A stretch of 64,000 bases of DNA from positions 5,446 through 69,445 of the forward strand of contig JBEBWZ010000002.1 in assembly GCA_040391865.1 (NCBI GenBank), given 5' to 3'. Origin of the DNA: Solimonas flava. Lineage in GTDB: Bacteria > Pseudomonadota > Gammaproteobacteria > Nevskiales > Nevskiaceae. Position 1 is the stretch's first letter. Each line of letters starts with the position of its first letter. Both the position numbers and the translations under genes were made by a program. The notes under the pieces were generated by a model. The model was given only the letters and a program-made list of their open reading frames with translations, had not been told where the DNA came from and did no database searches. Below, piece by piece: positions 6,729 through 46,511 of the stretch.

Positions 6729-6796
6729 TTCCGATCGGGATTTCCCGTTCAGCAGCGGGCAGGCAAGCGAAAGTCGGCATCGGCGTCATGCTGAAC

Positions 6797-6822: not shown

Positions 6823-6872
6823 CAATCTCAGATGGCAACTGTGAGGCGGACTCACGGTGCAGACGATAGGTG

Positions 6873-6901
6873 GGCACTGGCTCAAAACCTGAGCCAGTGC
6901 C
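6873..6901 (-). terminator. perfect 12-bp stem-loop abutting the LysR stop codon
   Basis: GGCACTGGCTCA-aaacc-TGAGCCAGTGCC at 6873..6901, directly adjacent to the stop codon at 6902..6904. No U-tract follows. Its function (RNA stability or a REP-like element) is unknown. Confidence 0.5.
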
Positions 6902-7822: not shown

Positions 7823-7839
7823 GAAACTTATGCCCGGAA

Positions 7840-7860
7840 ATTCAAACTATTCATTTGAAT
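7840..7860. promoter_or_regulatory. candidate LysR-type binding dyad (T-N11-A style) in the divergent promoter region
   Basis: Perfect inverted repeat ATTCAAA-N7-TTTGAAT at 7840..7860, between the LysR start (7822) and the SDR start (7950), in a locally AT-rich stretch. Confidence 0.5.
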
Positions 7861-7949
7861 GATTGTAGTGAGCGGCATACGCTGCCAGCAAGCTGCCCCT
7901 TGTCAGCTTTGGCGCGTCACTGCGGCGACGCGAGCCACCGGAGATCTGC

Positions 7950-8780: not shown

Positions 8781-8840
8781 GCGCACCGCGCTCGCGTCTC
8801 GTCCATCCACGATCCGGCACGCCAGGAGTTTGCGCAGGCC

Positions 8841-11215: not shown

Positions 11216-11247
11216 TGGCCTTTTAAGCAGCCGCCACGCGGCTGGAT

Positions 11248-11300
11248 CGGATGGGTACAGATAGACCGACAGCGCTTCTGTACCCATCCGGTTTGCTGTT
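11248..11300 (+). terminator. probable terminator after the ACAD gene
   Basis: Perfect 13-bp stem CGGATGGGTACAG (11248..11260) / CTGTACCCATCCG (11278..11290) followed by the T-rich GTTTGCTGTTCTCTGTG. A second small hairpin CAGCCGC-cac-GCGGCTG lies at 11228..11244. Confidence 0.6.
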
Positions 11301-32262: not shown

Positions 32263-32364
32263 GCCCGATTCCCCGGCCGCTACGGCAGCCCCCGGGGACC
32301 GCCGGGCGGACGTCATCCGTTTCCGGTATCGCAATGCAGCATTTCTGCCTACACTCGGGCCGCC

Positions 32365-33861
32365 ATGAGGAATCCACCCCGCACCGCCCGCCGCCTGATC
32401 GATCAGCGTCTGCTCGATCTGGCGCACGCCGACGACTACGCCAGCTGGAAGGAGATCGCGCTCGATCTCGACCGCCTCGAAGGCGCCGATGTCTGGAAGC
32501 AGGACGAGACCAGCGACGATTACGACTATCTGCTGCTGCGCGAGCGGCTCGCCGAGTTACGCGAATTGCGCCGCCGCGCCGATGTGCGCGAACTGGCGTT
32601 CGACCTGTACGACGGCCTGCACGGCAATCTCGGCAACATGTCGAACCGCGCGCTCTATGCCTGCTCGCGCGTCGGCACCAAGCGGCTGATCGAGGAATAC
32701 GTCGAAGAAGTCGCGCGCTGTCTCGATTTCATCTGCGCCGGCGACTTTCCCGATTTTCCGCTCGAGGAAAAGATCCAGTTCTTCAAGCGCACCGCCACCG
32801 CCTTCGGACGCTCGGCGCTGATGCTGTCCGGCGGCGGCACCCTGGGCATGTTCCATCTCGGCGTGATCAAGGCGCTGCATGAACAGCAGTTGCTGCCGCG
32901 GGTGCTGTCCGGCTCGTCGGCCGGCAGCATCATCGCCAGCGCCGTCGCCGTGCGCCGCGACGAAGAACTCGACGCGATGCTGCAACCGGGCGGGCTCGAT
33001 CTCGATGCGTTCAAGGCGCTGAGCCTGGCCGATGTCCTGAAAGGCGGCGCGATGATGGACGGCGCGCAACTCGAGCGCTGCCTCGCCGCCAATCTCGGCG
33101 AACACAATTTCGTCGATGCCTTCGAGCGTACCCACCGCATCGTCAGCGTCACCGTGTCGCCGGCCGAGCCGCACCAGCAGGGCCGCATGCTCAACTACCT
33201 GACCGCGCCGCATGTGCTGATGCGCCGTGCGGTGCTCGCCTCCTGCGCGGTGCCCGGCGTGTTCCCGCCGGTGATGCTGGAGTCGCGCGATTTCGATGGC
33301 CGCATCGTGCCGTACATGCCCAGCAAGCGCTGGGTCGACGGCTCGCTGTCATCGGATCTGCCGATGCTGCGGCTGGCGCGGCTGCACAACGTCAACCATT
33401 ACATCGTCAGCCAGACCAACCCGCATGTGGTGCCGTTCCTGTCGCAGATCGAACGCGAAGCGATGGCGCGCCGTGGTCTGGCACCACTGGCGCGGGAGCT
33501 GGTGCGCCACGGCAGCCGCGGCGCGCTGCAACTGGCACGCAAGCACCTCGATCCCTATGGCGGCGGACGCGTGCTCGGCAAGCTCGACAACATCGTGCGC
33601 CAGCGCTACTCCGGCGACGTCAACATCTTTCCGCAATACACGCAGCAGCGCGTCACGCGCGTGTTCTCGAACCCCAGCGAGGACGATATCCGCGGCTACA
33701 TCCGCCAAGGCGAACGCGCCACCTGGCCATCGCTGGAGCGCATCCGCGTGCAGACGCGCATCTCGCGCAGCTTCGAGGACTGCATCCGCCTGCTGAAGGA
33801 ACGCGAGCACACGCAGATCAAACCGCGCCCACGCAAGCTGCGCGTGGTCCAGGCGCAATAA
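32365..33861 (+). CDS. patatin-like phospholipase with N-terminal DUF3336-like region
   Basis: ATG at 32365. LMLSGGGTLGMFHLGVIKAL (oxyanion GGG), LSGSSAGSIIA (GxSxG nucleophile), WVDGSLSSDLP (catalytic Asp). The remainder of the 1481-aa ORF-track entry is antisense to mprF and is rejected. Confidence 0.85.
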   Translation: MRNPPRTARRLIDQRLLDLAHADDYASWKEIALDLDRLEGADVWKQDETSDDYDYLLLRERLAELRELRRRADVRELAFDLYDGLHGNLGNMSNRALYACSRVGTKRLIEEYVEEVARCLDFICAGDFPDFPLEEKIQFFKRTATAFGRSALMLSGGGTLGMFHLGVIKALHEQQLLPRVLSGSSAGSIIASAVAVRRDEELDAMLQPGGLDLDAFKALSLADVLKGGAMMDGAQLERCLAANLGEHNFVDAFERTHRIVSVTVSPAEPHQQGRMLNYLTAPHVLMRRAVLASCAVPGVFPPVMLESRDFDGRIVPYMPSKRWVDGSLSSDLPMLRLARLHNVNHYIVSQTNPHVVPFLSQIEREAMARRGLAPLARELVRHGSRGALQLARKHLDPYGGGRVLGKLDNIVRQRYSGDVNIFPQYTQQRVTRVFSNPSEDDIRGYIRQGERATWPSLERIRVQTRISRSFEDCIRLLKEREHTQIKPRPRKLRVVQAQ

Positions 33862-33886
33862 GCCCCGGCCCCTTGCGGGCCGGGGC
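33862..33886. terminator. GC hairpin between convergent patatin and mscL genes
   Basis: GCCCCGGCCC-cttgc-GGGCCGGGGC, a perfect 10-bp stem with no clear U-tract on either side. Confidence 0.5.
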
Positions 33887-33898
33887 CACGTCCAGCGG

Positions 33899-34300
33899 TT
33901 ACTTCTGCTTCAGCAGATCGCGGATTTCGGTCAGCAGCTGCTGATCGGGGGTCGGTCCGGCCGGGGCCGCTTCCACTTCCGGCTGCTGCCGCTTCAGGCG
34001 ATTGATGCCCTTGATCGCCATGAAGATCGCAAACGCGATGATGATGAAATCGAAGATCGTCTGGATGAACTTGCCGTAGGACAGCAGCACTGCCGCCTGA
34101 TCACCCTGTGCCGCCTTGAGCGTGATCGCGAGATCGGAGAAATCCACCCCGCCCACCGCCAGACCGATCAGCGGCGTGATCACGTCCGCCACCAGCGACG
34201 TCACGATCTTGCCGAAGGCCGCGCCGATGACCACACCGACGGCGAGGTCCATGACGTTGCCACGCATCGCAAACTCTTTGAACTCTTTGATCATGCTCAT
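33899..34300 (-). CDS. mscL: large-conductance mechanosensitive channel
   Basis: 133 aa. [46 protein letters not shown]... is the canonical MscL N-terminus. Confidence 0.95.
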
Positions 34301-34378
34301 CGGCCGACTCCTGCTGGGGACAAGGGTTGTTGAAAAACGATCCGGGAATTCTACGCAAGCCTGCCGCGCGCCGTCGCC

Positions 34379-35248
34379 CTAGAGCGAGGCCGGCAATCCC
34401 GACGCCAGATCCGGATGGCGCGGCACAAAGCCCAACTCATCGCGCATGCGCGTGGTCTGCAGCCGCTTCGACTCCTCCATGAACGACCACATCGCCGGCG
34501 TGAACACGCGGCGCGCTTCGTCCAGATCGACTTCCGTCGGCAACGGCAGGCCCAGCAACTGCGCACAGCGGGTGAAGTAATCGGCCATCGTCGTGGGATT
34601 GCCATCCGCGATGTTGTAGGCGCGGCCGGCAACGCCGCGTACTGCGGCATGCAGCGCCGCCTCCGCCAGGTCATCCGCGTGAATGCGATTGGTGTACGGC
34701 GACTGCTCCGCACGCAGCACCGGCATGCCGCGCTGCAGACGTTCCCGCGGCAAGCGCCCCGGACCGTAGATACCCGGCACCCGCAGGATCACCACCTCGC
34801 CACCGCCGGCAGCGGACCACTGCAGTAGAGCGTGCTCCGCATCCACGCGTCGGTGCGCACGCTCACTCTGCGGCTTGAACGGCTCGTCCTCGTCGATCCA
34901 GCGACCTTCGCAATCGCCATAAACCCCGGACGTGGAGATGTAAACGATGCGTTCGATACGCCCGCGCTGCACCCGCAGCCACTGACGCAGGCGCGCGTCC
35001 TCACTGCCGCTGCCCGGTGGCGGCGCAAACCAGAACAGCAGCGGCCAGTCGCCGACATCCTGCGGTTGATCGAGGTCCTGCAACAGGATGCGCACACCGG
35101 CATCCTGCAGTGGCCGGCTTTTTTGCGGGTCCCGCAGGATTCCCGTAACCTCGCGGGCCCTCGCCGCGACGCGGCGCCCGACACGCAAGCCGATATCGCC
35201 GCAGCCGGCAATCAGCACGCGCGCGGGTAGTTGTTCGAGAGAGTTCAT
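34379..35248 (-). CDS. NAD(P)-binding SDR/epimerase-family protein
   Basis: 289 aa. N-terminal Rossmann motif VLIAGCGDIGLRVG. Extended-SDR-like YISTSGVYGD and YTNRIHADD. Confidence 0.75.
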   Translation of the reverse strand: MNSLEQLPARVLIAGCGDIGLRVGRRVAARAREVTGILRDPQKSRPLQDAGVRILLQDLDQPQDVGDWPLLFWFAPPPGSGSEDARLRQWLRVQRGRIERIVYISTSGVYGDCEGRWIDEDEPFKPQSERAHRRVDAEHALLQWSAAGGGEVVILRVPGIYGPGRLPRERLQRGMPVLRAEQSPYTNRIHADDLAEAALHAAVRGVAGRAYNIADGNPTTMADYFTRCAQLLGLPLPTEVDLDEARRVFTPAMWSFMEESKRLQTTRMRDELGFVPRHPDLASGLPASL

Positions 35249-36266
35249 GACGCATCAAGTGTATCTGGCGGGGCGCCCTCAGCGCTTCGAAGTCGCGGAA
35301 GGCGAAACCGTGCTGCAGGCCGGGCGGCGCCAGCATCTGGCAATGCCCTTCGGTTGTCAGTCCGGCGGCTGCGGCTCCTGTCGCGTGCGTCTGCTGCAAG
35401 GCACGGTGCAGTATCCCTTCCCACCACCTGCGCTGTCGGCTGCCGAAATCGACGCCGGCTATGTGCTGATGTGCCTGGCACAACCGACTTCCGATCTGAC
35501 CCTGGACCTGCATCAACCGCCGCAGATCGAAGCGCTGCGGCCACGGCAATCGCCGTGCCGCGTGCAGTCGCGCGAATGGCGTTGCCACGACGTGCTCGGG
35601 CTGACGCTGAAACTGCCGAAAGGCAACGACTTCCAGTACCTGCCGGGGCAATACATCGACCTGCTGCTCGACGAAGGTCGTCGCCGCAGCTTTTCGATCG
35701 CCAATGCGCCGAACCACGAGACGCTGGAACTGCACGTGCGCGTCACCCCCGGCGGCCGCTTCGCGCACTGGGCGGCACACGAGATGCCGGACAAGGCGAT
35801 CCTGCGTTTCGAAGGTCCACTGGGTGCGTTCTACCTGCGCGAGGATTCGCAGCGCCCGATCCTGATGATGGCCGGCGGCACCGGCATCTCGCCGCTGCAC
35901 GCGATGCTGCAGGACCTGACGCAGCGCGAGTTCACGCGCCCGGTGCATCTGTACTGGGGCGTGCGCGGCCAGCGCGATCTGTATCTGCACGAACAACTGC
36001 AGCGCTGGACCGAAACCCAGCCCGGCTTCCGCTACACCCCGGTGCTGTCGGAAGCCGATTCCGGCTGGAACGGCGCCACCGGCTTCGTGCACGAAGCGCT
36101 GCTGCGCGACTATCCGCAATTGAGCGGCTACGAAGCGTATCTCTCCGGCCCACCGGTGATGGTCCGCAGCGGCAAGGACGCCTTCCTCGATGCCGGCCTC
36201 GATGCCGATCACCTGTTCTACGACTCGTTCGACTACGCCTTCGAGACCTGGCCGACACTGGGGTAG
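35247..36266 (+). CDS. 2Fe-2S ferredoxin fused to an FNR-like FAD/NAD(P)-binding reductase (CDP-6-deoxy-delta-3,4-glucoseen-reductase-like)
   Basis: ATG at 35247. CQSGGCGSCRV...C plant-type 2Fe-2S motif, RSFSIA (RxYS-type FAD site), and MMAGGTGISP NAD(P) motif. Confidence 0.85.
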   Translation: MTHQVYLAGRPQRFEVAEGETVLQAGRRQHLAMPFGCQSGGCGSCRVRLLQGTVQYPFPPPALSAAEIDAGYVLMCLAQPTSDLTLDLHQPPQIEALRPRQSPCRVQSREWRCHDVLGLTLKLPKGNDFQYLPGQYIDLLLDEGRRRSFSIANAPNHETLELHVRVTPGGRFAHWAAHEMPDKAILRFEGPLGAFYLREDSQRPILMMAGGTGISPLHAMLQDLTQREFTRPVHLYWGVRGQRDLYLHEQLQRWTETQPGFRYTPVLSEADSGWNGATGFVHEALLRDYPQLSGYEAYLSGPPVMVRSGKDAFLDAGLDADHLFYDSFDYAFETWPTLG

Positions 36267-36284
36267 CGGATCACCTCGTGCGAA

Positions 36285-37736
36285 TCAGGCGCTCGCCAGA
36301 TTCTCGAAGCGGGTGAAAGCGCCCAGAAAGGCCGTGCGCACCGTATCAATCGGGCCGTTGCGCTGCTTGGCGATGATGATCTCCGCAGTCCCTCTGTGCT
36401 CGGAGTCCTTGTTGTAGACCTCGTCGCGGTAGATGAATGCGACCAAGTCCGCGTCCTGTTCAAGGCCACCGGATTCGCGCAAATCCGCCAGCCTGGGACG
36501 GCGATCCTCGCGCTGCTCCACGCTGCGGTTCAGCTGCGACAGCAGAATGATCGGCACCGCCAACTCCTTCGCCAGCGCTTTGAGGCTGCGGGAGATTTCC
36601 GCCATCTCGTTGGTGCGGTTTTCCTTGGTGCCGGGAATCTGCATCAGTTGCACATAGTCGATCACGATCAAGCCAAGCCCATACTGCTTCTTGATCCGGC
36701 GCGACCGTGCACGAATATCCAAAGGCGACAATGCGCCCTGCTCATCGATATGCATCGGCGCTTCGCGGATCGCGATGGCCTGCGACAGCCGGTCCCAGTC
36801 ACGGTCATCCAACTCGCCGCTGCGCAGTCGCGACATCGGCACCCGTGCAAACGAGGACAGAACCCTCAGTCCCAACTGCTCAGCCGGCATCTCCATGCTG
36901 AACACCAGCACGGTCTTGTGCTCATGAATGGCCACATGCTCGGCGACGTTCATCGCAAACGTGGTTTTGCCCATTGCAGGACGGCCCGCAATGATCACCA
37001 GATCGCCGGGATGAAGCCCCGTTGTCAGCTGATCAAAATCCCGGAATCCCGTCGGCAATCCTGCCAAGGCACCGGCGTTCTGAGCCAGCCGCTCCAGGTT
37101 CTGATCGACCAGGTCCATGACCTCGGACATGATCAGACTTGAAGATCGCCCCGATTCGCTGCGTGAACGCAGGGCGAACACCCGCTGCTCCGCCAGATCA
37201 AGCAACTCGGCGTGCGAACGACCCGCCGGCTGATAGCCGAGATCGGCAAGATCGGCGCTGGCATGCAGCAGCTCACGCAGAACCGCCCGCCCGCGGACAA
37301 TATCCGCATAGGCCAACACATTCGCCGACGTCGGTGTGTCATTGGCCAGCGAGCCGATATACGCAAGCCCACCTACATTTTCCAACTGGTCCTTGCCCTT
37401 CAGATGCTCGGACAAGGTGACAAAGTCGCAGGGCTGATTGCGATCGGACAGTTCGCAGATCGCTCGAAAGATCAGCCGATGATTTTCCGAGTAGAAGTCG
37501 GCCTGCGAGATCCGATCGGCAAGATCATCCCAGCAGCGATTGTCGAGCATCAACCCACCCAGAATGGCTTGCTCGGCCTCCAAAGAGAACGGCGGTGTTC
37601 GCGGCTGAGATGTAATTTTAGTCTGCAATGGAGTATCTGCCTTATCTGTAACGCTCAAGGGGGCCTTGAGCTCCCCAGCTGGGGACAGCGGCGGGGCAAA
37701 TAACGCTAGCTCCTGATGCGACAGTACACGTCGCAT
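36285..37736 (-). CDS. dnaB: replicative DNA helicase
   Basis: PPFSLEAEQAILGGLMLDN..., Walker A GRPAMGKTTFAMN, IVIDYVQLM, SLKALAKELAVPIILLSQLNR, and ...AEIIIAKQRNGP. Start is uncertain: ATG 37736 is reported here, a TTG near 37653 would give an E. coli-like N-terminus, and the ORF-track start at 37799 overlaps the upstream gene's stop. Confidence 0.9.
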   Translation of the reverse strand: MRRVLSHQELALFAPPLSPAGELKAPLSVTDKADTPLQTKITSQPRTPPFSLEAEQAILGGLMLDNRCWDDLADRISQADFYSENHRLIFRAICELSDRNQPCDFVTLSEHLKGKDQLENVGGLAYIGSLANDTPTSANVLAYADIVRGRAVLRELLHASADLADLGYQPAGRSHAELLDLAEQRVFALRSRSESGRSSSLIMSEVMDLVDQNLERLAQNAGALAGLPTGFRDFDQLTTGLHPGDLVIIAGRPAMGKTTFAMNVAEHVAIHEHKTVLVFSMEMPAEQLGLRVLSSFARVPMSRLRSGELDDRDWDRLSQAIAIREAPMHIDEQGALSPLDIRARSRRIKKQYGLGLIVIDYVQLMQIPGTKENRTNEMAEISRSLKALAKELAVPIILLSQLNRSVEQREDRRPRLADLRESGGLEQDADLVAFIYRDEVYNKDSEHRGTAEIIIAKQRNGPIDTVRTAFLGAFTRFENLASA

Positions 37737-37739
37737 CAG
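37713..37739 (-). promoter_or_regulatory. perfect 10-bp hairpin enclosing the candidate dnaB ATG / downstream of the island operon
   Basis: CTGATGCGAC-agtacac-GTCGCATCAG at 37713..37739. It lies 53 nt downstream of the last island gene's stop (37792) and contains the ATG at 37736. Confidence 0.45.
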
Positions 37740-37791
37740 ATAATCTTGAAAATCACCTCTCGAGAACCAGAAGAAACGACAAGCCAAGAGT

Positions 37792-38862
37792 TCAGACATC
37801 CCTCGCAGAGAACTGAGCCGTCAAGCGGTCAACTAGTCTTTTTCCGTAGAGAGGATTCATTGAAACGGAGGTGCTAATCGGATGATAAATACCGAACTGT
37901 TGCCGAATCTCATCCGCAGGAAGACCAAAACTCAAATCGCTGGCCACGGCTTTCCATTTGACTGCAAGTCTATGACGGCATTTACCGCATAAGGTGTCTC
38001 CCGCTCCACCCTCAGGAACCAACCGATAAGAGCCAACATCGTCGACCACAGCCCACCCCACCGCACCGAACCCTTTTGCATAAGCAACAACAATGTCCCC
38101 CGGAATATATTTTCTTAGCAGTTTCTCACCTTGGTCTCCAGGTAAATCATCAAAACATGCCGGAATTTGACCCAGAGAAACCAAAGATTTCCACCATGCA
38201 TTATCTGCTTTCGCTATGTTATGCCAAAAATAACCGGGCTCTCGAACTGGGGAGTCAAATATAAGTGAATAAAGAGATTCCGGCGCACGGTCAAAAGCAA
38301 TCGAGAACGAAAGGAACCGCTCATCACCAACCTGGACTGGAAAATATGAAATACATCTAAAAGCGACATCTTTAGAGCATAGCCATTCACCTAGAGAGAA
38401 CACAGTTTCATCGAAGGATCGTGCAATCAGTATTACTCTGCTACGGCTATTGATTGTTTCTATGTCAACTTTCCCTCCAAGAAATCTGGAAACTACGTCT
38501 TTAAAGTATTCCGGATTCTCTGAGAAATTATTAATAAAGTTGACCCCTCTATGCTTTGAGAAATCAGATAAATACTGCATCGCCTGAGTCTCAATTCCCA
38601 GTCGCCCCTCGTCTTTTTTTAATTCGATAATTACACCATTACCAGCCCTATCCAACGCTAGTATGTCGGCCCTTTTACCTGCTTTGGTTTTAACTTGATT
38701 TCTTACAATAAGGAGAGGCTCTCCAAAAACAGACTCCTGCATGCTATATATTTCATCTTCGCGCGTTACCAAATAACGCTCTATAGCGAGTTCCTTAGGG
38801 CTCCAATTGGAGCGCATCGCTTCCAGCCGCCCCTCAAATTCATCATTTATTCTATATAGCAT
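37792..38862 (-). CDS. island gene D: NucS/DUF91-like PD-(D/E)xK nuclease domain fused to a C-terminal beta-rich module (possibly PUA/EVE/ASCH-like)
   Basis: 356 aa. ATG preceded by GGAG (TGGAGTAATC ATG). GKRADILALDRAGNGVIIELKKDEG gives D66...E80-x-K82, followed by ETQAMQYL (QxxxY) and SRVILIARSFDE, matching the NucS-type nuclease core. The C-terminal part (YFWHNIAK...IPGDIVVAYAKGFGAVGWAVVDD...HRLAVKWK) resembles small PUA-like barrels; that part is inference only. Confidence 0.75.
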   Translation of the reverse strand: MLYRINDEFEGRLEAMRSNWSPKELAIERYLVTREDEIYSMQESVFGEPLLIVRNQVKTKAGKRADILALDRAGNGVIIELKKDEGRLGIETQAMQYLSDFSKHRGVNFINNFSENPEYFKDVVSRFLGGKVDIETINSRSRVILIARSFDETVFSLGEWLCSKDVAFRCISYFPVQVGDERFLSFSIAFDRAPESLYSLIFDSPVREPGYFWHNIAKADNAWWKSLVSLGQIPACFDDLPGDQGEKLLRKYIPGDIVVAYAKGFGAVGWAVVDDVGSYRLVPEGGAGDTLCGKCRHRLAVKWKAVASDLSFGLPADEIRQQFGIYHPISTSVSMNPLYGKRLVDRLTAQFSARDV

Positions 38863-38929
38863 GATTACTCCAATTTTATGCTCGCCTTGGCAAGGCTCGA
38901 ACGAATTTAATCAAAACTGAACACGTACT

Positions 38930-39520
38930 CTATTCATCTTTATCGCCGATCCATCCATAAAATTCTTCCGGCACCCCATCTGCCAATTGCCTATTAGTCT
39001 TTATATCGATGGTCGAGTTACACCCCATAAGCGGCACCTCAATAATTTCCTCCTGCGCCGACCAATTCATCTCCAGATAGCGATTACCATCGCCATCATG
39101 CTTGATCCCGGTCACGCGCCCATGACCATGAAGGAGCATCGTCTTGCCGAACTGATTTCGCTTCTTGAGGATGATGAGATCGCCCGGCCATATGTTGTTA
39201 AAGCGCTCAAGCTGCTGCTTACTGCTAAAGAAGATAAAGGTACAGATACCTTTCGCCTTCCACTCGATATCAAGCCGGTTCTCGAAGTCGGCTCCAGGAC
39301 AAAACCCCATGAACACCATCGTCCTGTCCAATGGCGTTTTCGTATCGATCGCAGCGATCACGGCATCGACGCCGGCAGCCCCCTTGTCCCTCATCCGTAC
39401 AGCGTTGGCATGTAGCTTTACCAGATCCGTTCTCGTGTAGGTGCCATTACGGATTCTTTCAATCTGTTCTTGGTTTCCCATAACACTCCAGAGATATTGT
39501 TCTACTGCCTTGAGCAGCAT
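38930..39520 (-). CDS. island gene C: small hypothetical protein with a PGD[LI][IV][IV]-containing beta-rich module similar to the C-terminus of gene D
   Basis: 196-aa ORF. An alternative ATG at 39481 has a better RBS (TGGAGTGTT ATG). IWPGDLIILKKRNQFGKTMLLHGHGRVTGIKHD...YLEMNWS parallels IPGDIVVAYAKGFGAVGWAVV...LAVKWK of gene D. No family recognised. Confidence 0.6.
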   Translation of the reverse strand: MLLKAVEQYLWSVMGNQEQIERIRNGTYTRTDLVKLHANAVRMRDKGAAGVDAVIAAIDTKTPLDRTMVFMGFCPGADFENRLDIEWKAKGICTFIFFSSKQQLERFNNIWPGDLIILKKRNQFGKTMLLHGHGRVTGIKHDGDGNRYLEMNWSAQEEIIEVPLMGCNSTIDIKTNRQLADGVPEEFYGWIGDKDE

Positions 39521-39551
39521 TATTCCGCAAATTGGCTCAATGTCGGATATA

Positions 39552-40847
39552 TCAGAGTCCGTCTTTAGGGCCCTCTGGCTCGGAACTCAGCGCTTCGAGT
39601 TCAAGACCTTCAATCTCCTGCATGGATTTCCCTGCAATACCCTGCAGGTCGCCATACATCCCCACCGTGGCGGTCACGACACGGGCAATTTGCTGTTCGC
39701 GCTTGGCCCACTGCTTTGAGATCACTTTGCGCTCGCGATCCAGGTCTTCACGCATGGAGGTGAAGGTTTCGACGATTGCTTCGACACGATGGCGGAAGGC
39801 CGGTCCGGTCAGGTACTGATAGACCATTTCGGTTTTTGTCTGCTGACCTTCAGCGATCTGACGCGCCATGCTCACCTGCATCAGGCCATGCCGTAGCGAT
39901 GTTGCTACCGGAAGCGCGGCTCGCGGCGTGGTGATCCAGACGCCGTCGATGACGTCAAAGGTTTCGACTCCCTTTGGCAATACCTGCGAGACCAGAATGG
40001 CGATCTCCGCCTTGGCGGCGCGCTGATCGTCACGCAGCTTGGTGAGCCAGGTATCACTCCAGTGCCTGGTGCGCTTGGACTCCCACAGGATCGTGCCGCA
40101 GGCCTGCCCTCCGGGGCCGATGACTCGGTGCACGACATCTCCACCAAACTCTCCTTTCGGAACGGGCTCGATGCTGTCGAACGGAAATTTCCCTCGCAGC
40201 AGGCTTTCCAGTTCCAACTCCTGCACCTCTCCCTGCAGTTGCTGGGAGCCCTGATCGGCCTTCTGCTTGAGGTCATCGATCTTTTTCTGCATCGAGGCGA
40301 TGACGCGATCCCTCTCAGCAATCTTCAGCCCGATCGAGTCCTCGACCTCCTTCAGGGCTTGCCCCCTGACGGCAGCCAGTTCCTCATTCACTTTGTTCTG
40401 TACCGTCAGCCCTAACTCGCGGCGGGCGTCATCCAACTCCCGCTGCTTGCGGATCAGGTCGGCCTGCGCTCCTTGAGCCTCTGCCAGCTTTTCTTCTCGC
40501 TTCTGCAGCAGTTCTTTCAACTCCGAGAGCTCATTGGACTTGGCATCAAGGTCCGCACCCAACGCCAAGCGGGCCTTGCGCGCTTCCTCGGCAACAAGTC
40601 GGGCGCGCTCGGCCGCAAGCTGGACAAAGACTCCTTCCGAAATTTTGGAATCAATCGTGCGCCGCGCCTCGACAATGGACTGTTCCTGTTCACGGAACGT
40701 CTGCTCTCTCGCAGCCATCGCATTGTCCTTCTCAAGGATTCTGCGCTCGAAGTCCTGCCGTGTCGCAGCAATCAATGGCGCGGCGAGCGACTCTGTCAAT
40801 CGGATAGTGGTGGCACAGTTGGGGCAAACGATGGTGGGTTCGGTCAT
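39552..40847 (-). CDS. island gene B: DUF2130-type protein (N-terminal CxxC, long coiled coil, C-terminal PD-(D/E)xK-like domain)
   Basis: ATG at 40847 (MTEPTIVCPNCATTIRL); an overlapping GTG at 40859 is also possible. About 190 residues are heptad-rich and E/K/R/Q/L-rich. Then FPFDSIEPVPKGEFGGDVVHRV...GTILWESKRTRHWSDTWLTKLRDDQ...AEIAILVSQVLPKG (D241...E260-x-K262 in 435-aa ORF-track numbering). The overall pattern matches what I recall of DUF2130. Confidence 0.8.
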   Translation of the reverse strand: MTEPTIVCPNCATTIRLTESLAAPLIAATRQDFERRILEKDNAMAAREQTFREQEQSIVEARRTIDSKISEGVFVQLAAERARLVAEEARKARLALGADLDAKSNELSELKELLQKREEKLAEAQGAQADLIRKQRELDDARRELGLTVQNKVNEELAAVRGQALKEVEDSIGLKIAERDRVIASMQKKIDDLKQKADQGSQQLQGEVQELELESLLRGKFPFDSIEPVPKGEFGGDVVHRVIGPGGQACGTILWESKRTRHWSDTWLTKLRDDQRAAKAEIAILVSQVLPKGVETFDVIDGVWITTPRAALPVATSLRHGLMQVSMARQIAEGQQTKTEMVYQYLTGPAFRHRVEAIVETFTSMREDLDRERKVISKQWAKREQQIARVVTATVGMYGDLQGIAGKSMQEIEGLELEALSSEPEGPKDGL

Positions 40848-40855
40848 GGCCTTTC

Positions 40856-42328
40856 TCACACGGATAGCTTCTTGGCCAACACGAGCATGGCTTCAGTGTC
40901 GCGTTCGCAGTACCGCAGGAGTTGTGCGCGCAGCTGAGCCTTTCGGGCGACTGACGTCGTCGGCTGTAGGGATTCTGAGAACGCTTCCTGCGCCTGACCT
41001 CCATCCTTTACGCCTTCGAGATCGTCATACCGCAACTCTGGAGCAATCGTCGGCAGCACTTTCTTGATCGACCAGGAGCCCTGCATCTCGGGGTGGTAAT
41101 AGCCATCCCGCAACAGCGGCAACATGTCTTCGATTCTGGCGATGATGGCCGCGAGTTCCGCACGCAGATCCGGGAAGCGCTGCGCCAGTTCGCGAAGAAT
41201 GCGCTGCTCAAAGCTGCTGTAGACCACGATTGCGCCCTCCCGTCCCAGCATCGCGATCAAGCTCTCCGCAAACTCGCGCATCGGTGCCTGATCTCCGTGC
41301 GCCAGGTATTCGCGGTGAGCCACATCGCCGCTGGCCTGCTCGACATGGCAGGACCACTGAAACGGCAGTTGTTCGTAAGGTCGCGTTCCCGCCCAGATCG
41401 GAACGGCAAACTGAATCGTCTCGAAGTCCAGGTAATAGCGTGGGTACGAAATGGAACGGAGCTTTTCGGCAAGGTCTGCGGCAAAGATCGGGGCGCCCGC
41501 AACCGTGGCCTGCCAGACACGGATATGGGTCGGATTGCTGAGCGCACCTTCTGGAATCTCTCGAATGTCTTCGAACCCTTGACCCTGCAGTTGTTCGATT
41601 TGCGCTCTGCGGATACGCGGCAACATGGAAAGCGGATATTCCGGCTGCGGCCCTGCGCATTGCGCCATAAAGGGACATGGATAGGGGCGCCCGCATTGCG
41701 CGCCCATCTCGACTGTCGGCATTGCGCCGGACAGCGTTGCCCGTGCGCCTTCGGTCCACTGCGAAACCGCGGCAACCATTGGTTCCACGGCAGCGGCTAC
41801 ATCCACTTCTTTCAACAAGCCTTGATAGTTGCCGCTGCCGGAATAGACGAAGCCGGTGTCGACGTGGGCCAGCGCGTAACTTGAAAGTGGCAGCCCTTCT
41901 GCCCTGAGCACGGCAACCTGCACCGCCAGATCATCGAGATGTGGCTCTTTGACCGATGTCGATGATTTGACCTCGATGAGGTGATATCCGCCTCGCACCG
42001 GTTTTAGAACGTCGGCACGAATCAGCAGACCTGCATCGTCGAATGTCGCCTCGAATAGCGTATGGGCGTAGGGATGTCCCATTCTTTCTCGGGTCTCAGC
42101 CAGAGCAGCACGCAGTCCTCCCGCAGGCTCGACCAGCCACCCGGGTCCATACAGGTCACGCGCGATCGCTCCAACCTTGTTGCCGTCTGCAAAGCGTCGC
42201 TCAGCGTCTGCGGACTGTTCTCCCAGCTGCGGCCAGTATGTCTCCAGCCATAGACGTTTGGCACACTGCCGAAAGCTGAGTAAGCGGGATTTGGAGAGTC
42301 CCGTCCGCCCTCCAGGTAGTTGCTCCAT
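40856..42328 (-). CDS. island gene A: DUF2779-type protein (Cas4/RecB-like PD-(D/E)xK nuclease with a 4-Cys cluster, plus a C-terminal RNase-H-fold DEDD-like exonuclease)
   Basis: 490 aa. Strong SD (TAAGGAGGGGAG ATG). Motifs: C22 (FRQCAKRLW); D106...E119-V-K121 (IRADVL...HLIEVKSST); QVAVL; C212-x5-C218-x5-C224 (QCGRPYPCPFMAQC); then YYLDFETIQF (D301, E303), VVYSSFEQRIL, and LRYCERDTEAM (Y-x3-D). Confidence 0.8.
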   Translation of the reverse strand: MEQLPGGRTGLSKSRLLSFRQCAKRLWLETYWPQLGEQSADAERRFADGNKVGAIARDLYGPGWLVEPAGGLRAALAETRERMGHPYAHTLFEATFDDAGLLIRADVLKPVRGGYHLIEVKSSTSVKEPHLDDLAVQVAVLRAEGLPLSSYALAHVDTGFVYSGSGNYQGLLKEVDVAAAVEPMVAAVSQWTEGARATLSGAMPTVEMGAQCGRPYPCPFMAQCAGPQPEYPLSMLPRIRRAQIEQLQGQGFEDIREIPEGALSNPTHIRVWQATVAGAPIFAADLAEKLRSISYPRYYLDFETIQFAVPIWAGTRPYEQLPFQWSCHVEQASGDVAHREYLAHGDQAPMREFAESLIAMLGREGAIVVYSSFEQRILRELAQRFPDLRAELAAIIARIEDMLPLLRDGYYHPEMQGSWSIKKVLPTIAPELRYDDLEGVKDGGQAQEAFSESLQPTTSVARKAQLRAQLLRYCERDTEAMLVLAKKLSV

Positions 42329-42346
42329 CTCCCCTCCTTATCGATA

Positions 42347-42356
42347 TGTGATCACA
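42347..42356. promoter_or_regulatory. perfect 10-bp palindrome upstream of island operon (candidate operator of the WYL regulator)
   Basis: TGTGATCACA at 42347..42356, 19 nt upstream of the gene A start and just upstream of its SD, within the 121-bp divergent region shared with the WYL regulator gene. Confidence 0.4.
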
Positions 42357-42449
42357 ACCGTGCAAGAAGCCAACAGAGTAAGCTCCGCATGCGACGGCTT
42401 GTGACGCATTCATAAGTCCCCATAGTCACTCTGCCCGAAAGCCGAACTT

Positions 42450-43457
42450 ATGTCAGCCAACGATCTTGCCCTGCGTCAGTGGACCTTGTTGCGCAGCATT
42501 CCCCGATATCCGCAGCGGGCTTCGACCCGTGAACTGCGCGACCGGTTGCTGCAGCAGGGCTTCGAGGTAACGCCACGGTCGGTGCAGCGCGATCTGGCAA
42601 CGCTGTCGACAACCTTCGGCTATACCTCGGAGGAAGAAGGCAGAACACTGTTCTGGTTCTGGCCCAAGGATTTTGGCCTGCTGGATGTGCCGGGAATGGA
42701 ACCGGTTACTGCGCTGACGTTCACTCTCGCCGAGGCCCACCTGAACCAGATACTTCCGGCTTCGGCCCTGCAGTTACTGGCGCCCTATTTCAAGACGGCT
42801 CGCGGTGTTCTCGGCCAGTCGTCGGGCAGCCGGTACAGCCGCTGGCCGGAGCGCGTGCGGGTGCTCGGCCGCGGCCCGGGGCTGACAGTTCCACAGGTTC
42901 AGCACAAGGTTCTGGCAGTGCTCGAGCAGGGCTTGCTCGGAGAGCGCGTACTAAGGATCCACTACTGCCGGCGAGGTGAGGCCAAAGCATCGGTTCATGA
43001 GATCAGCCCACGCGCACTGGTGGTAAAGGATGGCATTTACTATCTGATCGCAACCTACGGTGCACAAATGCCGCCCTATCATTTCGCGCTGCATCGGGCG
43101 ACCGCAGCCGAGATTCTCGATCAGTCCAGTCCCAAACTCCCCGAGTTTGATCTGGACCGCTACATCCGCTCGGTGCGAGCCTTCGACTGGCCGATCGGCA
43201 GGCAACCGATTTCGCTGATGCTCAGCGTGACCGAGGGCGTTCGCGTGCATCTGGAGGAGCGCGCGCTGTCGTCGGATCAACGGATCAGCGCTACCGATGA
43301 CGGCCGCTATCGGGTCGAAGCCTCGGTAATGTCCACCAGCGAACTGCGCTGGTGGTTGCTGGGCTACGGCCCCGAGATTGAGGTCATCCGTCCAATCGCC
43401 TTGCGACGCGAGATCGCAGCGACTATCGCCGGTGCCCATGCGCTGTATCGATGCTAA
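42450..43457 (+). CDS. HTH-WYL-WCX transcriptional regulator (BrxR/CapW/PafBC-like)
   Basis: 335 aa. N-terminal wHTH (ASTRELRDRLLQQGFEVTPRSVQRDLATL), central WYL-type region (RIHYCRRGEAKASVHEISPRALVVKDGIYYLIATYG...PYHFALHR), and a C-terminal WCX-like ELRWWLLGYGPEIEVIRPIALRREI. Divergent from the four-gene operon. Confidence 0.85.
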   Translation: MSANDLALRQWTLLRSIPRYPQRASTRELRDRLLQQGFEVTPRSVQRDLATLSTTFGYTSEEEGRTLFWFWPKDFGLLDVPGMEPVTALTFTLAEAHLNQILPASALQLLAPYFKTARGVLGQSSGSRYSRWPERVRVLGRGPGLTVPQVQHKVLAVLEQGLLGERVLRIHYCRRGEAKASVHEISPRALVVKDGIYYLIATYGAQMPPYHFALHRATAAEILDQSSPKLPEFDLDRYIRSVRAFDWPIGRQPISLMLSVTEGVRVHLEERALSSDQRISATDDGRYRVEASVMSTSELRWWLLGYGPEIEVIRPIALRREIAATIAGAHALYRC

Positions 43458-43482
43458 GCCCCGGAACACGCTCGCAAGCAGA

Positions 43483-44667
43483 TTACCGCGCAGCCAATTC
43501 CAGCCCCTGCCGATAGAACTTCTGCGCTTCTTCCGGGCTTTGGGTCTGCTCGCATAGACGTGCCAGTTCCAGATACGCGGTCGCGGTCGGCTCGGTACGC
43601 ACCACGGCTTCGAGGTAGCTGCGTGCCTTGCCCCACAGTTTGTTGCGCAGGCAGGCGCGGCCGGCGGTGACCAGCAGCTCGGGCTTCTCGCCGTACTTGC
43701 CCAGCCATTCCTCGATCGCTGCCAGTTGCGACAGTGGCTCTCCGGCCTGCAGCGAGCCGTACAGCGTCGCCAGCACCGGATCCCATTCACGGCTCAGCGT
43801 GGCGCTGATCATCGCCGCGGCTTCGGCATCGGCATTGAGCCGCACCAGGCCACGCACATAGGCGCGACGCAGATCGGACTGATGACGGAATTCCTTCGGC
43901 AAGGCCTCCCACAGGGCCTTGAGCTGTTCGAGATGCGCGTCGCGCAGGGCTTCGCCCATGCGTTCCAGCTGCGCACGCGTCAGCAGCGCGCGATAGCGCT
44001 CGGCCGGCAGCAGTGCACGCACGCCGTCATCGAGCAGCAATTGCCGCAAGGGCTCCCACGCCGAAAGGCCGTAATAGCTTTCGGCCAATAGTTCGGCGGC
44101 GTAGGGATGCCGGGTATCGATTGCACGCAGCTTCAGCGCCGTATCGCGCGCCAATGCGTATTCTCCACGCTCGCGCTGCAGTTCGGCCTGGGTCAGCAGC
44201 GTCGCCACTTCCATTTCCGGTGCCGATTGCGTGGCCAGGCGCAGGTAGTGATCGCGCCGGTCGCCCGCGCCCAGACGCTGCGCCGCACGCGCCGCGCCCA
44301 GGTAGTTCAGATGCGCGGCGTGATGGTCGGCCGCGCGACGCACCAGTTCGACTTCCGCGCGCTTCCAGTTGCCTTCCAGCAGTTTCAGCAGGCCATCCTC
44401 GAACGAGCTTTGCGCCTTGTCGCGACGACGACGTTCCAGCGCCGCACGCACGGTACCCGGCAGGCGCACGCCGCTGACCAGCAGCCGCACCGCCCAGTAC
44501 AGCACCAGCAGGCCGACCACGATCGCGACGATCAGCCCCAGCAGGGAGGTTTCGATGGTCCAGTGATGGATGTTGATGAGAACGTAACCGCTCTCTTCCC
44601 GCAGGTAGTGCGCGGTGGCGGCACCTCCCGCGAGGAACAGCACCGCGATCAGCAGCACGCGAATCAT
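43483..44667 (-). CDS. hemY: HemY-family protein (heme biosynthesis-associated TPR membrane protein)
   Basis: 394 aa. MIRVLLIAVLFLAGGAATAHYL...GYVLINIHHWTIETSL, two TM segments, then TPR-like repeats. Follows hemC-hemD/X. Confidence 0.85.
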   Translation of the reverse strand: MIRVLLIAVLFLAGGAATAHYLREESGYVLINIHHWTIETSLLGLIVAIVVGLLVLYWAVRLLVSGVRLPGTVRAALERRRRDKAQSSFEDGLLKLLEGNWKRAEVELVRRAADHHAAHLNYLGAARAAQRLGAGDRRDHYLRLATQSAPEMEVATLLTQAELQRERGEYALARDTALKLRAIDTRHPYAAELLAESYYGLSAWEPLRQLLLDDGVRALLPAERYRALLTRAQLERMGEALRDAHLEQLKALWEALPKEFRHQSDLRRAYVRGLVRLNADAEAAAMISATLSREWDPVLATLYGSLQAGEPLSQLAAIEEWLGKYGEKPELLVTAGRACLRNKLWGKARSYLEAVVRTEPTATAYLELARLCEQTQSPEEAQKFYRQGLELAAR

Positions 44668-46511
44668 GGCGCGGCCGGCTCCAGATGCGTGCGCAGCAGG
44701 CTGAGGCTGCGGCTGATGTCCGGCAGCGGCGGATTGAAGTTCAGCGGCCGCAGGCGTTCCAGCTCGGCCTGTGCTGCCAGCACGCCGGGATCATCGACGC
44801 GGAAGTAGTCGGCCATCCAGCGCGAGGCCGATTCGCACAGATCGCGGAAGCTGACGGTATCGCCGCCGAGCATTGCCAGCCGCGCGCCTTCCAGCTTCAT
44901 GGCCAGCACCTGCGTCACCAGCGTCTCCTGCTCTTCCGTCAGTCGCTGCGCGGCCGGGCCGGCATTGCGACGCACGGTGAACAGGCTGCTGACCGCGGCA
45001 CGCACCGACGCCGCGGCGCGCTGCCACCAGCGGGCATCGGCGGGAACCACCACTGGTTCCGGTCGGGCCTGGAAATGCTCGGGGGGACGCGTCGCCAGCG
45101 GCAACCGCGGCACGCGTGCAATCAGGCTCGCCAACGTCAGCGCAGCGCCCGCCTGATCCGGTCGCGCAACGGCTTGCAGCGCGGTCCGTTCCTGCGCCAG
45201 CGCCTGACGCACCGCGAACTGGCGTGGGTCGCGCAGGGCTGCCAGCCGCTGATCGGCTTCGTCCAGCGCCACCACCGCGGCGTCGACGTCGCGCGCCAGC
45301 AGCAGGCGGTCGTTGGCGAGAATCAGCAGCTGCTCGACCGAGGCCAGCTGGAAACGGTCGCGGCTGCCGCTGATCTGTTCGTTGATGCGTCCGACGATTT
45401 CGTCGTGCGCGTCGATGCGTGCGCCGAATTCGGCCAGCGCGGAGCCGTTGCGCTGCCCGATCGCCGCAAGGTCGCCCTGGCGCTGATCGAGACGGTCAGC
45501 CTGTACTTCCAGCGCATTCATGTCCTGCGCCATCTGCTGCAGCTGCTGACTCTGCGCAGCGATGGTCGCTTGCAGCCGTTCGCTGTAGCGCCACAGCCCC
45601 CAGCCGGCCGCTGCGATCGCCACCATCAGCAGCAGTGCCAGCCAGAACCGCCCGGCGGCCGAAGACGGCGCGCCGTCTTCGGGCACCGCCAGCAGGCGGG
45701 AGTCAGTCAGCGTCGTATTGTCGTCCGTCATGCGCGATCTCGGGGGGATGCCGTGCTGGCTCCACCATTGCTCCAGACACTGTACATAGGCCGCGTCGGT
45801 GACTTGGTCCGGTACCAGCGGGGCGGGCGTGAAGCCCAGTTGCAAGGCTTGTTCTACCACACGCTGGCTGGGCACAACCAGCCGCGTGCTGTGAAGCAAT
45901 TCATTCCGTTGCGCTTCCGAGGTCAGCTGCAGCAGCCGCTCTAGCGCTTCGCCGCTGGTGATCAGCACCGCATGCGCTTCGTGCAGTGCCTGCGCCACCG
46001 CTTCCGGTGCATGCGGCAACGGAATCCGGCGATAAACCTCGACCCGTTGCGCCTCGGCACCACGCGCCTGCAGTTCCGGCGCCAGCATGTTGCGGCCACC
46101 TTCACCGGTGACGATCAGATAACGCTTGCCGCCGATCTCCTGCAGCTCCGGCAGTTCGAGAATGCCTTCGCTGGTGTAAGCGGAGGTCGGCATCAGCGAC
46201 GATTGCCCCTGCGCCGACAGCGCAGCGGCAGTGGCCGCACCGACGGCAATGCACTGCGGCCAGACGCCGGCATCGAGCTGCGCCGCGAAGCGCACGGCGT
46301 TGACGCTGGTGAAGATCCAGCCATCGGCTTCGCGCCCGGCCTGCAACTGCCGCGCGATCTGGGTCGACTGACGTACCGATTCGATCGCCTGCAGTGGCAG
46401 CTGGCGCACATCGGCGCCACGCGCAGCCAGCAGGCGGCACAGGGTTTCGGCCTGGGTTTGCGGGCGCGTGACCAGCACGCGCAGGCCACGCAGGGTCTGC
46501 GAGTCGTCCAT
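44664..46511 (-). CDS. hemD: fused uroporphyrinogen-III synthase (HemD) / HemX membrane protein
   Basis: Single 615-aa frame with no internal stop. The N-terminal half is LRVLVTRPQTQAETLCRLLAARGADVRQLPL... (HemD). A TM segment (FWLALLLMVAIAAAGWGLW) and a coiled-coil HemX-like C-terminal half follow. The start lies 2 nt after the hemC stop and the stop overlaps the hemY start. Confidence 0.8.
   Translation of the reverse strand: MDDSQTLRGLRVLVTRPQTQAETLCRLLAARGADVRQLPLQAIESVRQSTQIARQLQAGREADGWIFTSVNAVRFAAQLDAGVWPQCIAVGAATAAALSAQGQSSLMPTSAYTSEGILELPELQEIGGKRYLIVTGEGGRNMLAPELQARGAEAQRVEVYRRIPLPHAPEAVAQALHEAHAVLITSGEALERLLQLTSEAQRNELLHSTRLVVPSQRVVEQALQLGFTPAPLVPDQVTDAAYVQCLEQWWSQHGIPPRSRMTDDNTTLTDSRLLAVPEDGAPSSAAGRFWLALLLMVAIAAAGWGLWRYSERLQATIAAQSQQLQQMAQDMNALEVQADRLDQRQGDLAAIGQRNGSALAEFGARIDAHDEIVGRINEQISGSRDRFQLASVEQLLILANDRLLLARDVDAAVVALDEADQRLAALRDPRQFAVRQALAQERTALQAVARPDQAGAALTLASLIARVPRLPLATRPPEHFQARPEPVVVPADARWWQRAAASVRAAVSSLFTVRRNAGPAAQRLTEEQETLVTQVLAMKLEGARLAMLGGDTVSFRDLCESASRWMADYFRVDDPGVLAAQAELERLRPLNFNPPLPDISRSLSLLRTHLEPAAP

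Follow-up and report, generated by a model that had tools for sequence, protein, structure and literature searches.

Gene content and limits of the island

The 64,000-nucleotide stretch of a Solimonas flava contig analysed here (the window) carries, next to hemY, a strain-variable island whose genes encode a WYL-WCX transcription regulator, four proteins referred to as A, B, C and D, and a DnaB-family helicase. An earlier note, made from the sequence of the window, had described the regulator and A to D as one undescribed four-gene defence system situated between two core genes, dnaB and hemY. That observation is partly confirmed. Five open reading frames (ORFs) are present where they had been placed, D, C, B and A on the minus strand and the regulator gene on the plus strand, and the spacing between them is as described. 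The idea of a single undescribed four-gene system flanked by core genes has to be given up; the island is a mosaic, a patchwork and not a single four-gene defence system. Its features are as follows.

36266-43483, no strand: strain-variable island of 7,218 bp, against an empty site of 62 bp
36285-37799, minus strand: gene of the DnaB-family helicase, given as the longest ORF, full length
37716-37736, no strand: box 2, ATGCGAC-N7-GTCGCAT, a perfect palindrome of 21 bp, 55 nt past the stop of D and upstream of the conserved DnaB core
37792-38862, minus strand: D, 356 amino acids, with an N-terminal NucS-like PD-(D/E)xK domain and a C-terminal EVE/YTH-like domain of the PUA superfamily
38930-39520, minus strand: C, 196 amino acids, low-GC, with three helices in the N-terminal region and a beta-barrel of YTH/EVE type
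39552-40859, minus strand: B, DUF2130, 435 amino acids, with an N-terminal CxxC, a coiled coil and a C-terminal PD-(D/E)xK domain
40856-42328, minus strand: A, DUF2779, 490 amino acids, with a Cas4/RecB-like PD-(D/E)xK domain and a DEDDy-type RNase-H-fold exonuclease
42389-42409, no strand: box 1, ATGCGAC-N7-GaCGCAT, in the 121-bp bidirectional spacer between the WYL gene and A
42450-43457, plus strand: WYL-WCX transcription regulator, 335 amino acids, the island-terminal gene

The limits of the island were set by aligning the window with four metagenomic contigs (L092-L095), which were reached through HemY proteins at least 90% identical to that of the window. In three of them (L092-L094) the 7,218 bp at 36266-43483 are represented by 62 bp, and the sequences on both sides are nearly the same as those of the window, with 99.5-99.7% identity over 32065-36265 and 98.3-98.4% over 43484-45345. 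The 62-bp spacer separates the stop codons of a ferredoxin-reductase-type oxidoreductase gene and of hemY, and the gene order of these contigs (hemY, ferredoxin-reductase-type oxidoreductase, epimerase, mscL, patatin gene) is that of the window minus the insert. The fourth contig, L095 (99.0% identity), enters the WYL end of the island by 30 bp before the contig ends and thus gives separate support for the right junction. The junctions lie 19 nt past the stop codon of dnaB and 26 nt past that of the WYL gene, and the insert contains dnaB, D, C, B, A and the WYL gene. The block is therefore not a housekeeping cluster kept at this locus in all relatives. Inspection of the junctions and a tRNA scan of the window revealed no flanking direct repeats, integrase or tRNA at the island; tRNA and Rfam scans over the whole 64 kb gave no matches.

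The flanks have a GC content of about 0.66 and the block one of 0.41-0.62, in agreement with the low-GC foreign block of the earlier note. The GC content at third codon positions (GC3) is 0.72 for dnaB, 0.72 for the WYL gene, 0.70 for B, 0.65 for A, 0.60 for C and 0.39 for D, against 0.77-0.84 in the flanking genes. The block is foreign and differs between near-identical strains. Since its limits in relatives are 36266-43483, dnaB is cargo of the island and not a core gene at its flank, as had been supposed. The absence of a methyltransferase (ORF list and Pfam) and of an integrase from the island stands; the claim that it has no helicase or ATPase is wrong, as dnaB is inside the insertion.

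The helicase is full-length and canonical, with both the DnaB N-terminal domain (Pfam, 1e-34) and DnaB_C (2e-103), and scores 490 bits against the E. coli DnaB chains. The GC content of its gene is 0.60. Because the strains that are near-identical in the flanks (L092-L094) have no dnaB at the hemY site, the island dnaB is most simply taken as an extra copy, as judged from the comparison of this site within the 64-kb window. A plasmid search with the helicase returned many plasmid dnaB genes at 50-56% identity and did not reveal its origin. The protein has no significant match in PADLOC-DB v2.

The regulator and the DriD-like boxes

The regulator gene is divergent from the nuclease operon, as the earlier note had it, and its product matches the Pfam models WCX (2e-17) and WYL (6e-9). 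Five of its six sequence matches in the PDB are DriD chains and the sixth is PafBC (E from 2e-4 to 1e-3); no CapW or BrxR is among the six. At the WYL position the protein reads IYYLIA and not RWHVR, the motif of the CapW/BrxR repressors (PMC11662680). DriD of Caulobacter is an activator with a winged helix-turn-helix (wHTH), WYL and WCX domains that is switched on by single-stranded DNA (ssDNA) and recognizes the box ATACGAC(N7)GTCGTAT, with the core CGAC-N7-GTCG (PMC10853764, PMC13004042, PMC9186387). In promoters under DriD control the box covers part of the -35 and is set at a constant spacing from the -10 (PMC10853764, PMC13004042), and the protein drives didA, recJ, bapE, dnaG and an operon divergent from driD (PMC10853764, PMC13004042, PMC9186387). 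The divergent gene, CCNA_03891, is described as uncharacterized; a link between it and DUF2779 was considered.

Two boxes of this type were identified as candidate operators in the island. Box 1 was found by aligning the spacer between the WYL gene and A with that of L083, a Logan contig carrying a related block; a generic repeat finder gave no inverted repeat there. It is located 60 nt before the start of A and 40 nt before the start of the WYL gene, and on the A side it is followed 8 nt downstream by the -10-like hexamer TACTCT and then by a strong ribosome-binding site, AAGGAGG. The arms of the box are kept in L083 and in L177, the locus of the next-closest A homologue, and the spacer has diverged. 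Box 2 falls within the N-terminal extension of the longest dnaB ORF, which begins at an ATG overlapping the stop codon of D (ATGTCTGA, window 37792-37799), and homologues of the helicase start some 60 codons further on. It is therefore likely that dnaB has been annotated with too early a start; the real one is probably a TTG near 37658, after box 2 and with GGGGAG ahead of it.

The degenerate box pattern has two matches in the 64-kb window, both at promoter positions of the island, and none are expected by chance. Neighbourhoods were sampled from 80 metagenome loci of the A family and from 82 loci of the B family, the latter taken with up to 10 kb per side. With at most one mismatch, 22 boxes occur in the 0.98 Mb of A-family loci, where about 0.16 are expected, against one in the 1.32 Mb of B-family loci; the loci of solo D or C homologues contain none. 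A box was assigned to a gene whose start lies within 250 nt. By this rule, boxes stand upstream of A in the window, L083, L104, L138 and L177, and also upstream of WYL genes; others precede AAA ATPase genes (L141, L177 and L179), DnaB-like genes (L104 and L141), NT5C nucleotidase genes (L177) and some further genes. Most are followed by a -10-like hexamer 7-10 nt downstream, so that the box sits over the -35 position. A consensus scan for promoters and terminators performed at chance level and was not used.

The island thus shares with the DriD regulon the WYL plus WCX architecture of the regulator and a 7+7 palindrome with a 7-nt spacer, ATGCGAC-N7-GTCGCAT as compared with ATACGAC-N7-GTCGTAT, in which the CGAC-N7-GTCG core is intact. 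In both cases the box covers the -35, one box belongs to a bidirectional promoter from which the regulator gene is also read, and the targets, putative for the island, process DNA: an exonuclease and a replisome helicase in the island, recJ, bapE and dnaG in Caulobacter. There are also differences. Sequence identity is low and the island host is not an alphaproteobacterium; the island regulon is strain-variable and has defence-type cargo, whereas that of Caulobacter lies among core genes; and A, B and DnaB are not among the reported targets of DriD. BrxR and CapW belong to the same superfamily and stand beside defence-type genes, and the ligand of CapW is likewise ssDNA. The island regulator differs from them in having no RWHVR, the CapW binding site (one sequence compared) differs from the island boxes, and no BREX or CBASS protein was matched in the island by PADLOC. 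On the strength of the operator match, the DriD matches in the PDB and the missing RWHVR, the regulator is better described, at the level of sequence, as DriD-like than as a member of the class controlling BREX and CBASS, to which the earlier note had assigned it.

Families of proteins A to D and their neighbourhoods

Protein A belongs to DUF2779 (PF11074; 7e-43, 146 bits against a cut-off of 23.3) and has weak matches to Cas4 and to the TM0106 RecB-like family. Its predicted catalytic and cysteine residues, D106/E119/K121, C22/C212/C218/C224, D301/E303 and Y473/D477, are invariant in the family alignment. The two-nuclease layout of the DUF2779 family is known from the literature (PMC13621843, PMC3985635), and the DUF2779 gene is quasi-essential in the minimal Mycoplasma JCVI-syn3.0 (PMC13621843). 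A resembles Cas4/AddB-type iron-sulphur nucleases and the TM0106/DUF2779 fusions (for example MMSYN1_0389) in its two-domain layout with both active sites; unlike MMSYN1_0389 it keeps all four cysteines, and unlike Cas4 it has no CRISPR-cas context. A search of PDB chains with the family profile found no match for A. One paper proposes DUF2779 as a Cas4-related immunity factor. In the literature searched, no paper was found that places the family in a defence island or ties it to a WYL regulator, and neither WYL/DriD-box control nor motor partners of DUF2779 were encountered.

A WYL homologue is found beside A in 36 of the 80 sampled loci, in 30 of them within 3 kb. A CDC48-like double-AAA ATPase is near A in 16 loci, and a DnaB or DnaB_C-like gene in seven, five of these within 3 kb, where about 0.2 would be expected for a single-copy gene (Poisson probability 1e-9). 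The remaining neighbours include a PF06189 5'-nucleotidase, the PADLOC candidate PDC-S08 (six loci), GmrSD-like genes, among them GmrSD/HEC-05-like ones (five), HD-domain genes (five), ADP-ribosylglycohydrolases (five) and Mrr-like genes (four). The PF06189 partner, which matches PDC-S08 at 8e-136, is also fused to DUF2779 or lies directly 3' of it, as in P0221 (821 amino acids), L098 (845-3322) and L126 (11455-12381). In L177 the A homologue (55% identity) is accompanied by a divergent WYL-WCX gene and then by a double-AAA ATPase, without B, C, D or DnaB. The family is present on plasmids as well. A Rhodoferax plasmid has the order AAA, DUF2779, WYL, hypothetical gene, PLD-domain protein, DEAD-box helicase. 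On a Sphingobium yanoikuyae plasmid (NZ_CP053022.1; L180, 5444-10668), a WYL-DUF2779 pair adjoins a second pair, in which a WYL gene is divergent from a TM0106-family RecB-like nuclease, and both pairs lie between transposases. The Sphingobium arrangement suggests a wider pattern, in which Cas4/RNase-H fusion nucleases are commonly under WYL control.

Protein B belongs to DUF2130 (PF09903; 3e-78, 263 bits against a cut-off of 26.7), which is listed in the PD-(D/E)xK superfamily (PMC3424549), and C12/C15 and D241/E260/K262 are invariant in its alignment. With more than 8000 relatives the family is very large, and at 65-72% identity over Beta- and Gammaproteobacteria, Nitrospira and Desulfobulbus its conservation is unusual. 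In about 16 of the 82 loci B is part of DISARM-like or type III restriction-modification operons. In L008, L011, L012, L014, L017 and others it stands between a DrmD-like SNF2 helicase of about 1000 amino acids and a type III-like methyltransferase with a putative restriction subunit of about 915 amino acids. In loci of the L008 type, where B occupies about 10001-11300, a variable ATPase (AAA_13/PDC-S06 or Ppl-like) is placed in between and stop and start codons often overlap. B is coupled to SIR2-HerA, with B upstream, in L021 and L030, and other neighbours are AAA_13/PDC-S06, Bro-N/PDC-S13, OLD/AriA-like or Ppl-like ATPases. Membership of B in DISARM or type III restriction-modification systems alone was considered and dropped, since B also adjoins SIR2-HerA, OLD/AriA-like and PDC-S06 genes. 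B looks like a constant guest beside variable effectors; it is a frequent resident of defence islands and, outside the present lineage, has no regular A partner. No paper placing DUF2130 in a defence island or tying it to a WYL regulator was found in the literature searched.

B occurs in 7 of 50,697 phage records, all of the matches being partial and none reaching 80% of the protein. Plasmid homologues of DUF2130 number 32 Bradyrhizobium records and 46 more, mostly rhizobial, with 50-57% identity among the matches listed. In one plasmid context, that of Mesorhizobium NZ_CP080527.1 (L181), the homologue (57%) is near a relaxase, ParA, the anti-restriction protein ArdC and ParB, a conjugative-plasmid setting unlike the chromosomal defence islands. 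B has no PADLOC model of its own and no match among PDB chains by family-profile search. Like ShdA of the RmuC-type Shield systems (PMC10270631), it places its PD-(D/E)xK domain after a long coiled coil and has a home in defence islands; unlike it, B has an N-terminal CxxC and no RmuC Pfam or Shield/PADLOC match, and the likeness is one of layout. Some DUF2130 proteins (P0009 and P0015, 584-589 amino acids; P0023, 685 amino acids) contain one or two more copies of a coiled-coil segment of about 150 residues than the 430-residue form. The segment LKxRDxKLAEAQKAQAELIKKQRELDD recurs in the family, which indicates that the length of the coiled coil varies by tandem duplication.

Protein D is matched over residues 40-274 of 356 by the PADLOC model PDLC04916 of the candidate family PDC-S11 (E = 2.3e-23; profile 33-268 of 358), and four more PDC-S11 models match its N-terminal half. 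Similarity to NucS is weak in Pfam and NCBIfam; Foldseek aligned the N-terminal half with NucS/EndoMS (2vld), and a family-profile search of PDB chains was of no use for D (NucS at E = 0.06). In the family alignment D66 and E80 are invariant and K82 is kept at 90% or more, so that the catalytic residues pointed out by the earlier note are invariant or nearly so in A, B and D, and its domain calls for A, B, the regulator and D were borne out by Pfam. The model of D, built from 30 homologues, has a predicted local distance difference test score (pLDDT) of 85.5, with C-terminal blocks mostly at 86-96. With this C-terminal half Foldseek retrieved the EVE-HNH enzyme VcaM4I, the EVE proteins PH1033 and Atu2648, and YTH readers of m6A (E from 3e-4 to 1e-2). 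No Pfam EVE or YTH model matches D, and the reader is assigned at the level of the fold.

Homologues of D (51-64% identity) are solo in four other contexts, none having C, A, B or DnaB as an immediate neighbour: one stands beside HepT/MNT, another after polA and beside HicA, a third at a restriction-modification system, and the fourth about 3 kb from an A homologue (L161). Fusion of a PUA-family reader with a nuclease of PD-(D/E)xK or HNH type is well established among predicted type IV, or modification-dependent, restriction enzymes (PMC7641849, PMC6765204, PMC7897488). D is accordingly similar to the type IV class of VcaM4I and TspA15I, and to PDC-S11, in being a solo protein with an EVE/YTH reader barrel and an intact PD-(D/E)xK site and no methyltransferase. 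It differs from the type IV class in that the nuclease is NucS-like and N-terminal and the reader C-terminal, and its PDC-S11 match, to what is itself a candidate family, spans about two thirds of the protein. D is predicted, from its modelled fold, to be a modification-dependent (type IV-like) endonuclease.

Protein C, whose true start may be Met14, has no match in Pfam, PADLOC, NCBIfam or PHROG, none on plasmids, and none among PDB chains by family-profile search; A, B and D likewise have no PHROG matches. Its family is small, with 69 representatives. A model built from 24 relatives (pLDDT 90.4) gave modest structural matches to YTH and EVE domains and THYN1, with E of about 2e-3 to 2e-2 and template modelling scores of 0.4-0.5, and on this model C is possibly a stand-alone reader of modified bases. 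The earlier note's view that D carries a module resembling C holds at the level of the fold, both having a YTH/EVE-like barrel, and fails at that of sequence, where no relationship between C and D is apparent (BLASTP E = 0.33; hhalign profile-profile probability 0.9%). One solo homologue of C (L176, 786-2363), without D, precedes three genes for dynamin-like GTPases by about 1.5 kb. In P0369-P0373 and P0364 the C-type domain also forms the N-terminal part of large proteins with Sel1/TPR and WG repeats (520-1399 amino acids) or comes after the FtsK-gamma DNA-binding domain.

No named multi-gene system was recognized in the island, as the earlier note had stated: none of A, B and C has a significant match among the multi-gene systems of PADLOC-DB v2, which include restriction-modification, BREX, DISARM, Shedu, Gabija, Lamassu, Septu, Zorya and CBASS, and where Cas4 (0.006) and LmuB (0.0015) gave weak, partial matches. 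The exception to that claim is the PDC-S11 match of D. The families of A, B and D do stand among defence genes elsewhere, as had been expected. The recurrent pairing of DUF2779 and DUF2130 with C- or D-like genes that would mark a conserved system was not encountered. Among the 82 B loci, an A homologue was found in one (L081, on the opposite strand), WYL in one or two, and C and D in none; among the 80 A loci, a B homologue was found in one (35% identical, 5 kb away), D in one (about 3 kb away) and C in none. C beside D was not seen in the four other contexts of D or in the one other context of C. L081 (Nitrosospira sp., 2478-9218), the sole B locus with both A and WYL, has B convergent to A and WYL 2.4 kb away, in an island next to tyrS; a box with two mismatches precedes an operon of a 357-residue protein, a 97-residue protein and A, an arrangement that fits independent modules meeting.

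The closest relative of the island block is L083, whose WYL, A and B proteins are 74%, 80% and 89% identical to those of the window. The block is 77% identical in nucleotides over window 39592-43429, and the similarity is bounded by gene ends. The flanks are different, with a host gene of 70% GC beyond WYL, and an unrelated low-GC gene of 282 codons takes the place of C and D. A box with one mismatch follows directly after this cargo gene at the end of the contig and mirrors box 2. From these comparisons of sequence, the recurring core is WYL plus A, often with a DnaB-like or AAA+ motor, and we infer a framework that runs from WYL and box 1 through A-B and a variable low-GC slot for cargo to box 2 and dnaB.

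Outside the island, a 615-residue ORF at window 44664-46511 (minus strand) joins uroporphyrinogen-III synthase (HEM4) and HemX domains. By the Pfam labels on L095, hemD and hemX are apparently fused in the source organism and its relatives.

Proposed working of the island and rival explanations

With moderate confidence, the island is interpreted as a 7.2-kb accessory mosaic, in which a framework of DriD-type WYL regulator, box 1, A-B, box 2 and dnaB holds a cargo slot with C and D, and which would form a mobile nuclease-helicase cassette, probably triggered by ssDNA. By analogy with DriD, ssDNA from DNA damage or from an invading replicon would bind the WYL domain, and the regulator dimer would act at boxes 1 and 2, turning on A-B, with read-through into C-D, as well as dnaB. 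DNA ends would then be unwound and degraded by the helicase together with both exonuclease domains of A, the Cas4-like 5'-3' and the DEDDy 3'-5' one, and D would separately cut DNA containing a modified base read by its EVE/YTH-like domain. The weakest step is the choice of target. Action on invading DNA is preferred here to a part in chromosomal repair, since strains can dispense with the island and since defence genes accompany A, B and D in other genomes.

Several observations weigh against this interpretation. The similarity of the regulator to DriD is weak (E of about 1e-4) and confined to the WYL-WCX region; no Pfam helix-turn-helix model matches the protein, whose N-terminal 70 residues, read by eye, resemble a wHTH that has R-x3-R in its recognition helix; and the DriD-like label is silent on whether the regulator is an activator or a repressor. 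Boxes with at most one mismatch were found in 14 loci including the window, as compared with WYL in 36 of the 80 A loci, and DnaB-like neighbours are limited to about 9% of A loci. The 80 loci were the best-scoring members of the family and not a random sample, and their neighbours were called by a simple longest-ORF rule. L083 stops at its counterpart of box 2, so that a dnaB gene beyond it is assumed. The translational coupling of B to A in the window and in L083 is compatible with a functional A-B pair in this lineage. Finally, the quasi-essential DUF2779 gene of the minimal Mycoplasma (PMC13621843) and the DNA-damage response formed by the DriD regulon fit repair equally well.

Three other explanations were weighed against the accessory cassette. 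The one closest to the earlier note, a dedicated multi-nuclease defence system in which WYL and A, B, C and D act together, is very unlikely. The genes follow one another closely on the same strand behind a divergent WYL regulator, with a 4-nt overlap of A and B if B starts at GTG (or an 8-nt gap if it starts at ATG, as in the database copy P0001) and gaps of 31 nt between B and C and 67 nt between C and D. All nuclease active sites are intact, WYL-A-B recurs in L083, and no convincing terminator separates the genes, as far as a consensus scan at chance level can tell. Against such a system, A and B are together in about 1% of the sampled loci of either family, C and D were not seen together in any of the other contexts covered, another gene takes their place in L083, and GC3 divides D and C (0.39-0.60) from the rest (0.65-0.72). 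D homologues are moreover solo elsewhere, and D matches a single-gene PADLOC candidate.

A mobile module for DNA-damage response or repair, in which a DriD-like sensor would induce A as an end-processing exonuclease, B as a recombination-type nuclease and the extra replicative helicase for fork restart or repair and C and D would be hitch-hikers, is a serious rival, given the analogy with DriD and the quasi-essential DUF2779 of Mycoplasma, and is nevertheless rather unlikely. The operator is close to the DriD box, the Caulobacter regulon includes recA, recJ, dnaG and bapE, the best PDB matches of the regulator are DriD and PafBC, and DnaB-like and AAA+ motors recur beside A. The dispensability of the island in near-identical strains speaks against repair, as do the neighbours of A and B elsewhere, mostly of restriction or defence type, the fusion of A to PDC-S08, and the occurrence of the module on plasmids among transposases and a gene pair of PLD-domain protein and helicase. 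A mobile element could plausibly replicate and recombine with a gene set of this kind, comprising a regulator, an exonuclease and a DnaB helicase. The island could be the decayed fragment of an integrative element or satellite, with B, C and D as its defence cargo, that was fixed by homologous recombination. The variable low-GC slot between conserved genes and the presence of DUF2130 and DUF2779 on plasmids agree with such an origin, which is nonetheless distinctly improbable: no integrase, att repeats, tRNA, primase, origin repeats or structural genes were found in or beside the island, A to D have no PHROG matches, and the few matches of B in phage records are all partial.

A wider proposal can be made tentatively and is doubtful as it stands: the combination of a DriD-type WYL regulator, DUF2779 and a hexameric motor (DnaB-like or CDC48-like AAA+), joined by a DriD-like box, may be an undescribed and widespread ssDNA-triggered mobile cassette that destroys the DNA ends of invaders or rescues forks and that gathers cargo of defence type, for instance DUF2130 proteins, EVE-nucleases and PDC-S08 nucleotidases, in its slot. 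In that case the DriD circuit would be a portable control of accessory nucleases across Proteobacteria, beyond the Caulobacter damage checkpoint. As far as the literature searched goes, a WYL-DUF2779-motor cassette wired by DriD boxes and provided with a cargo slot is new, as is the defence-island habit of DUF2130. A vaguely defined four-gene system is replaced by testable units, namely an operator, a regulon (A-B and dnaB) and separable cargo, and the clean empty-site comparison supplies natural strains with and without the island. DUF2779 and DUF2130, with thousands of members each, gain contexts, the former with DriD-type WYL regulators and hexameric motors, the latter in the interior of restriction-modification, DISARM-like and SIR2-HerA loci. 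Should the cassette prove to be immune or repair machinery, the ssDNA-sensing DriD circuit would extend beyond alphaproteobacterial core genes and would provide a handle on solo Cas4-like nucleases.

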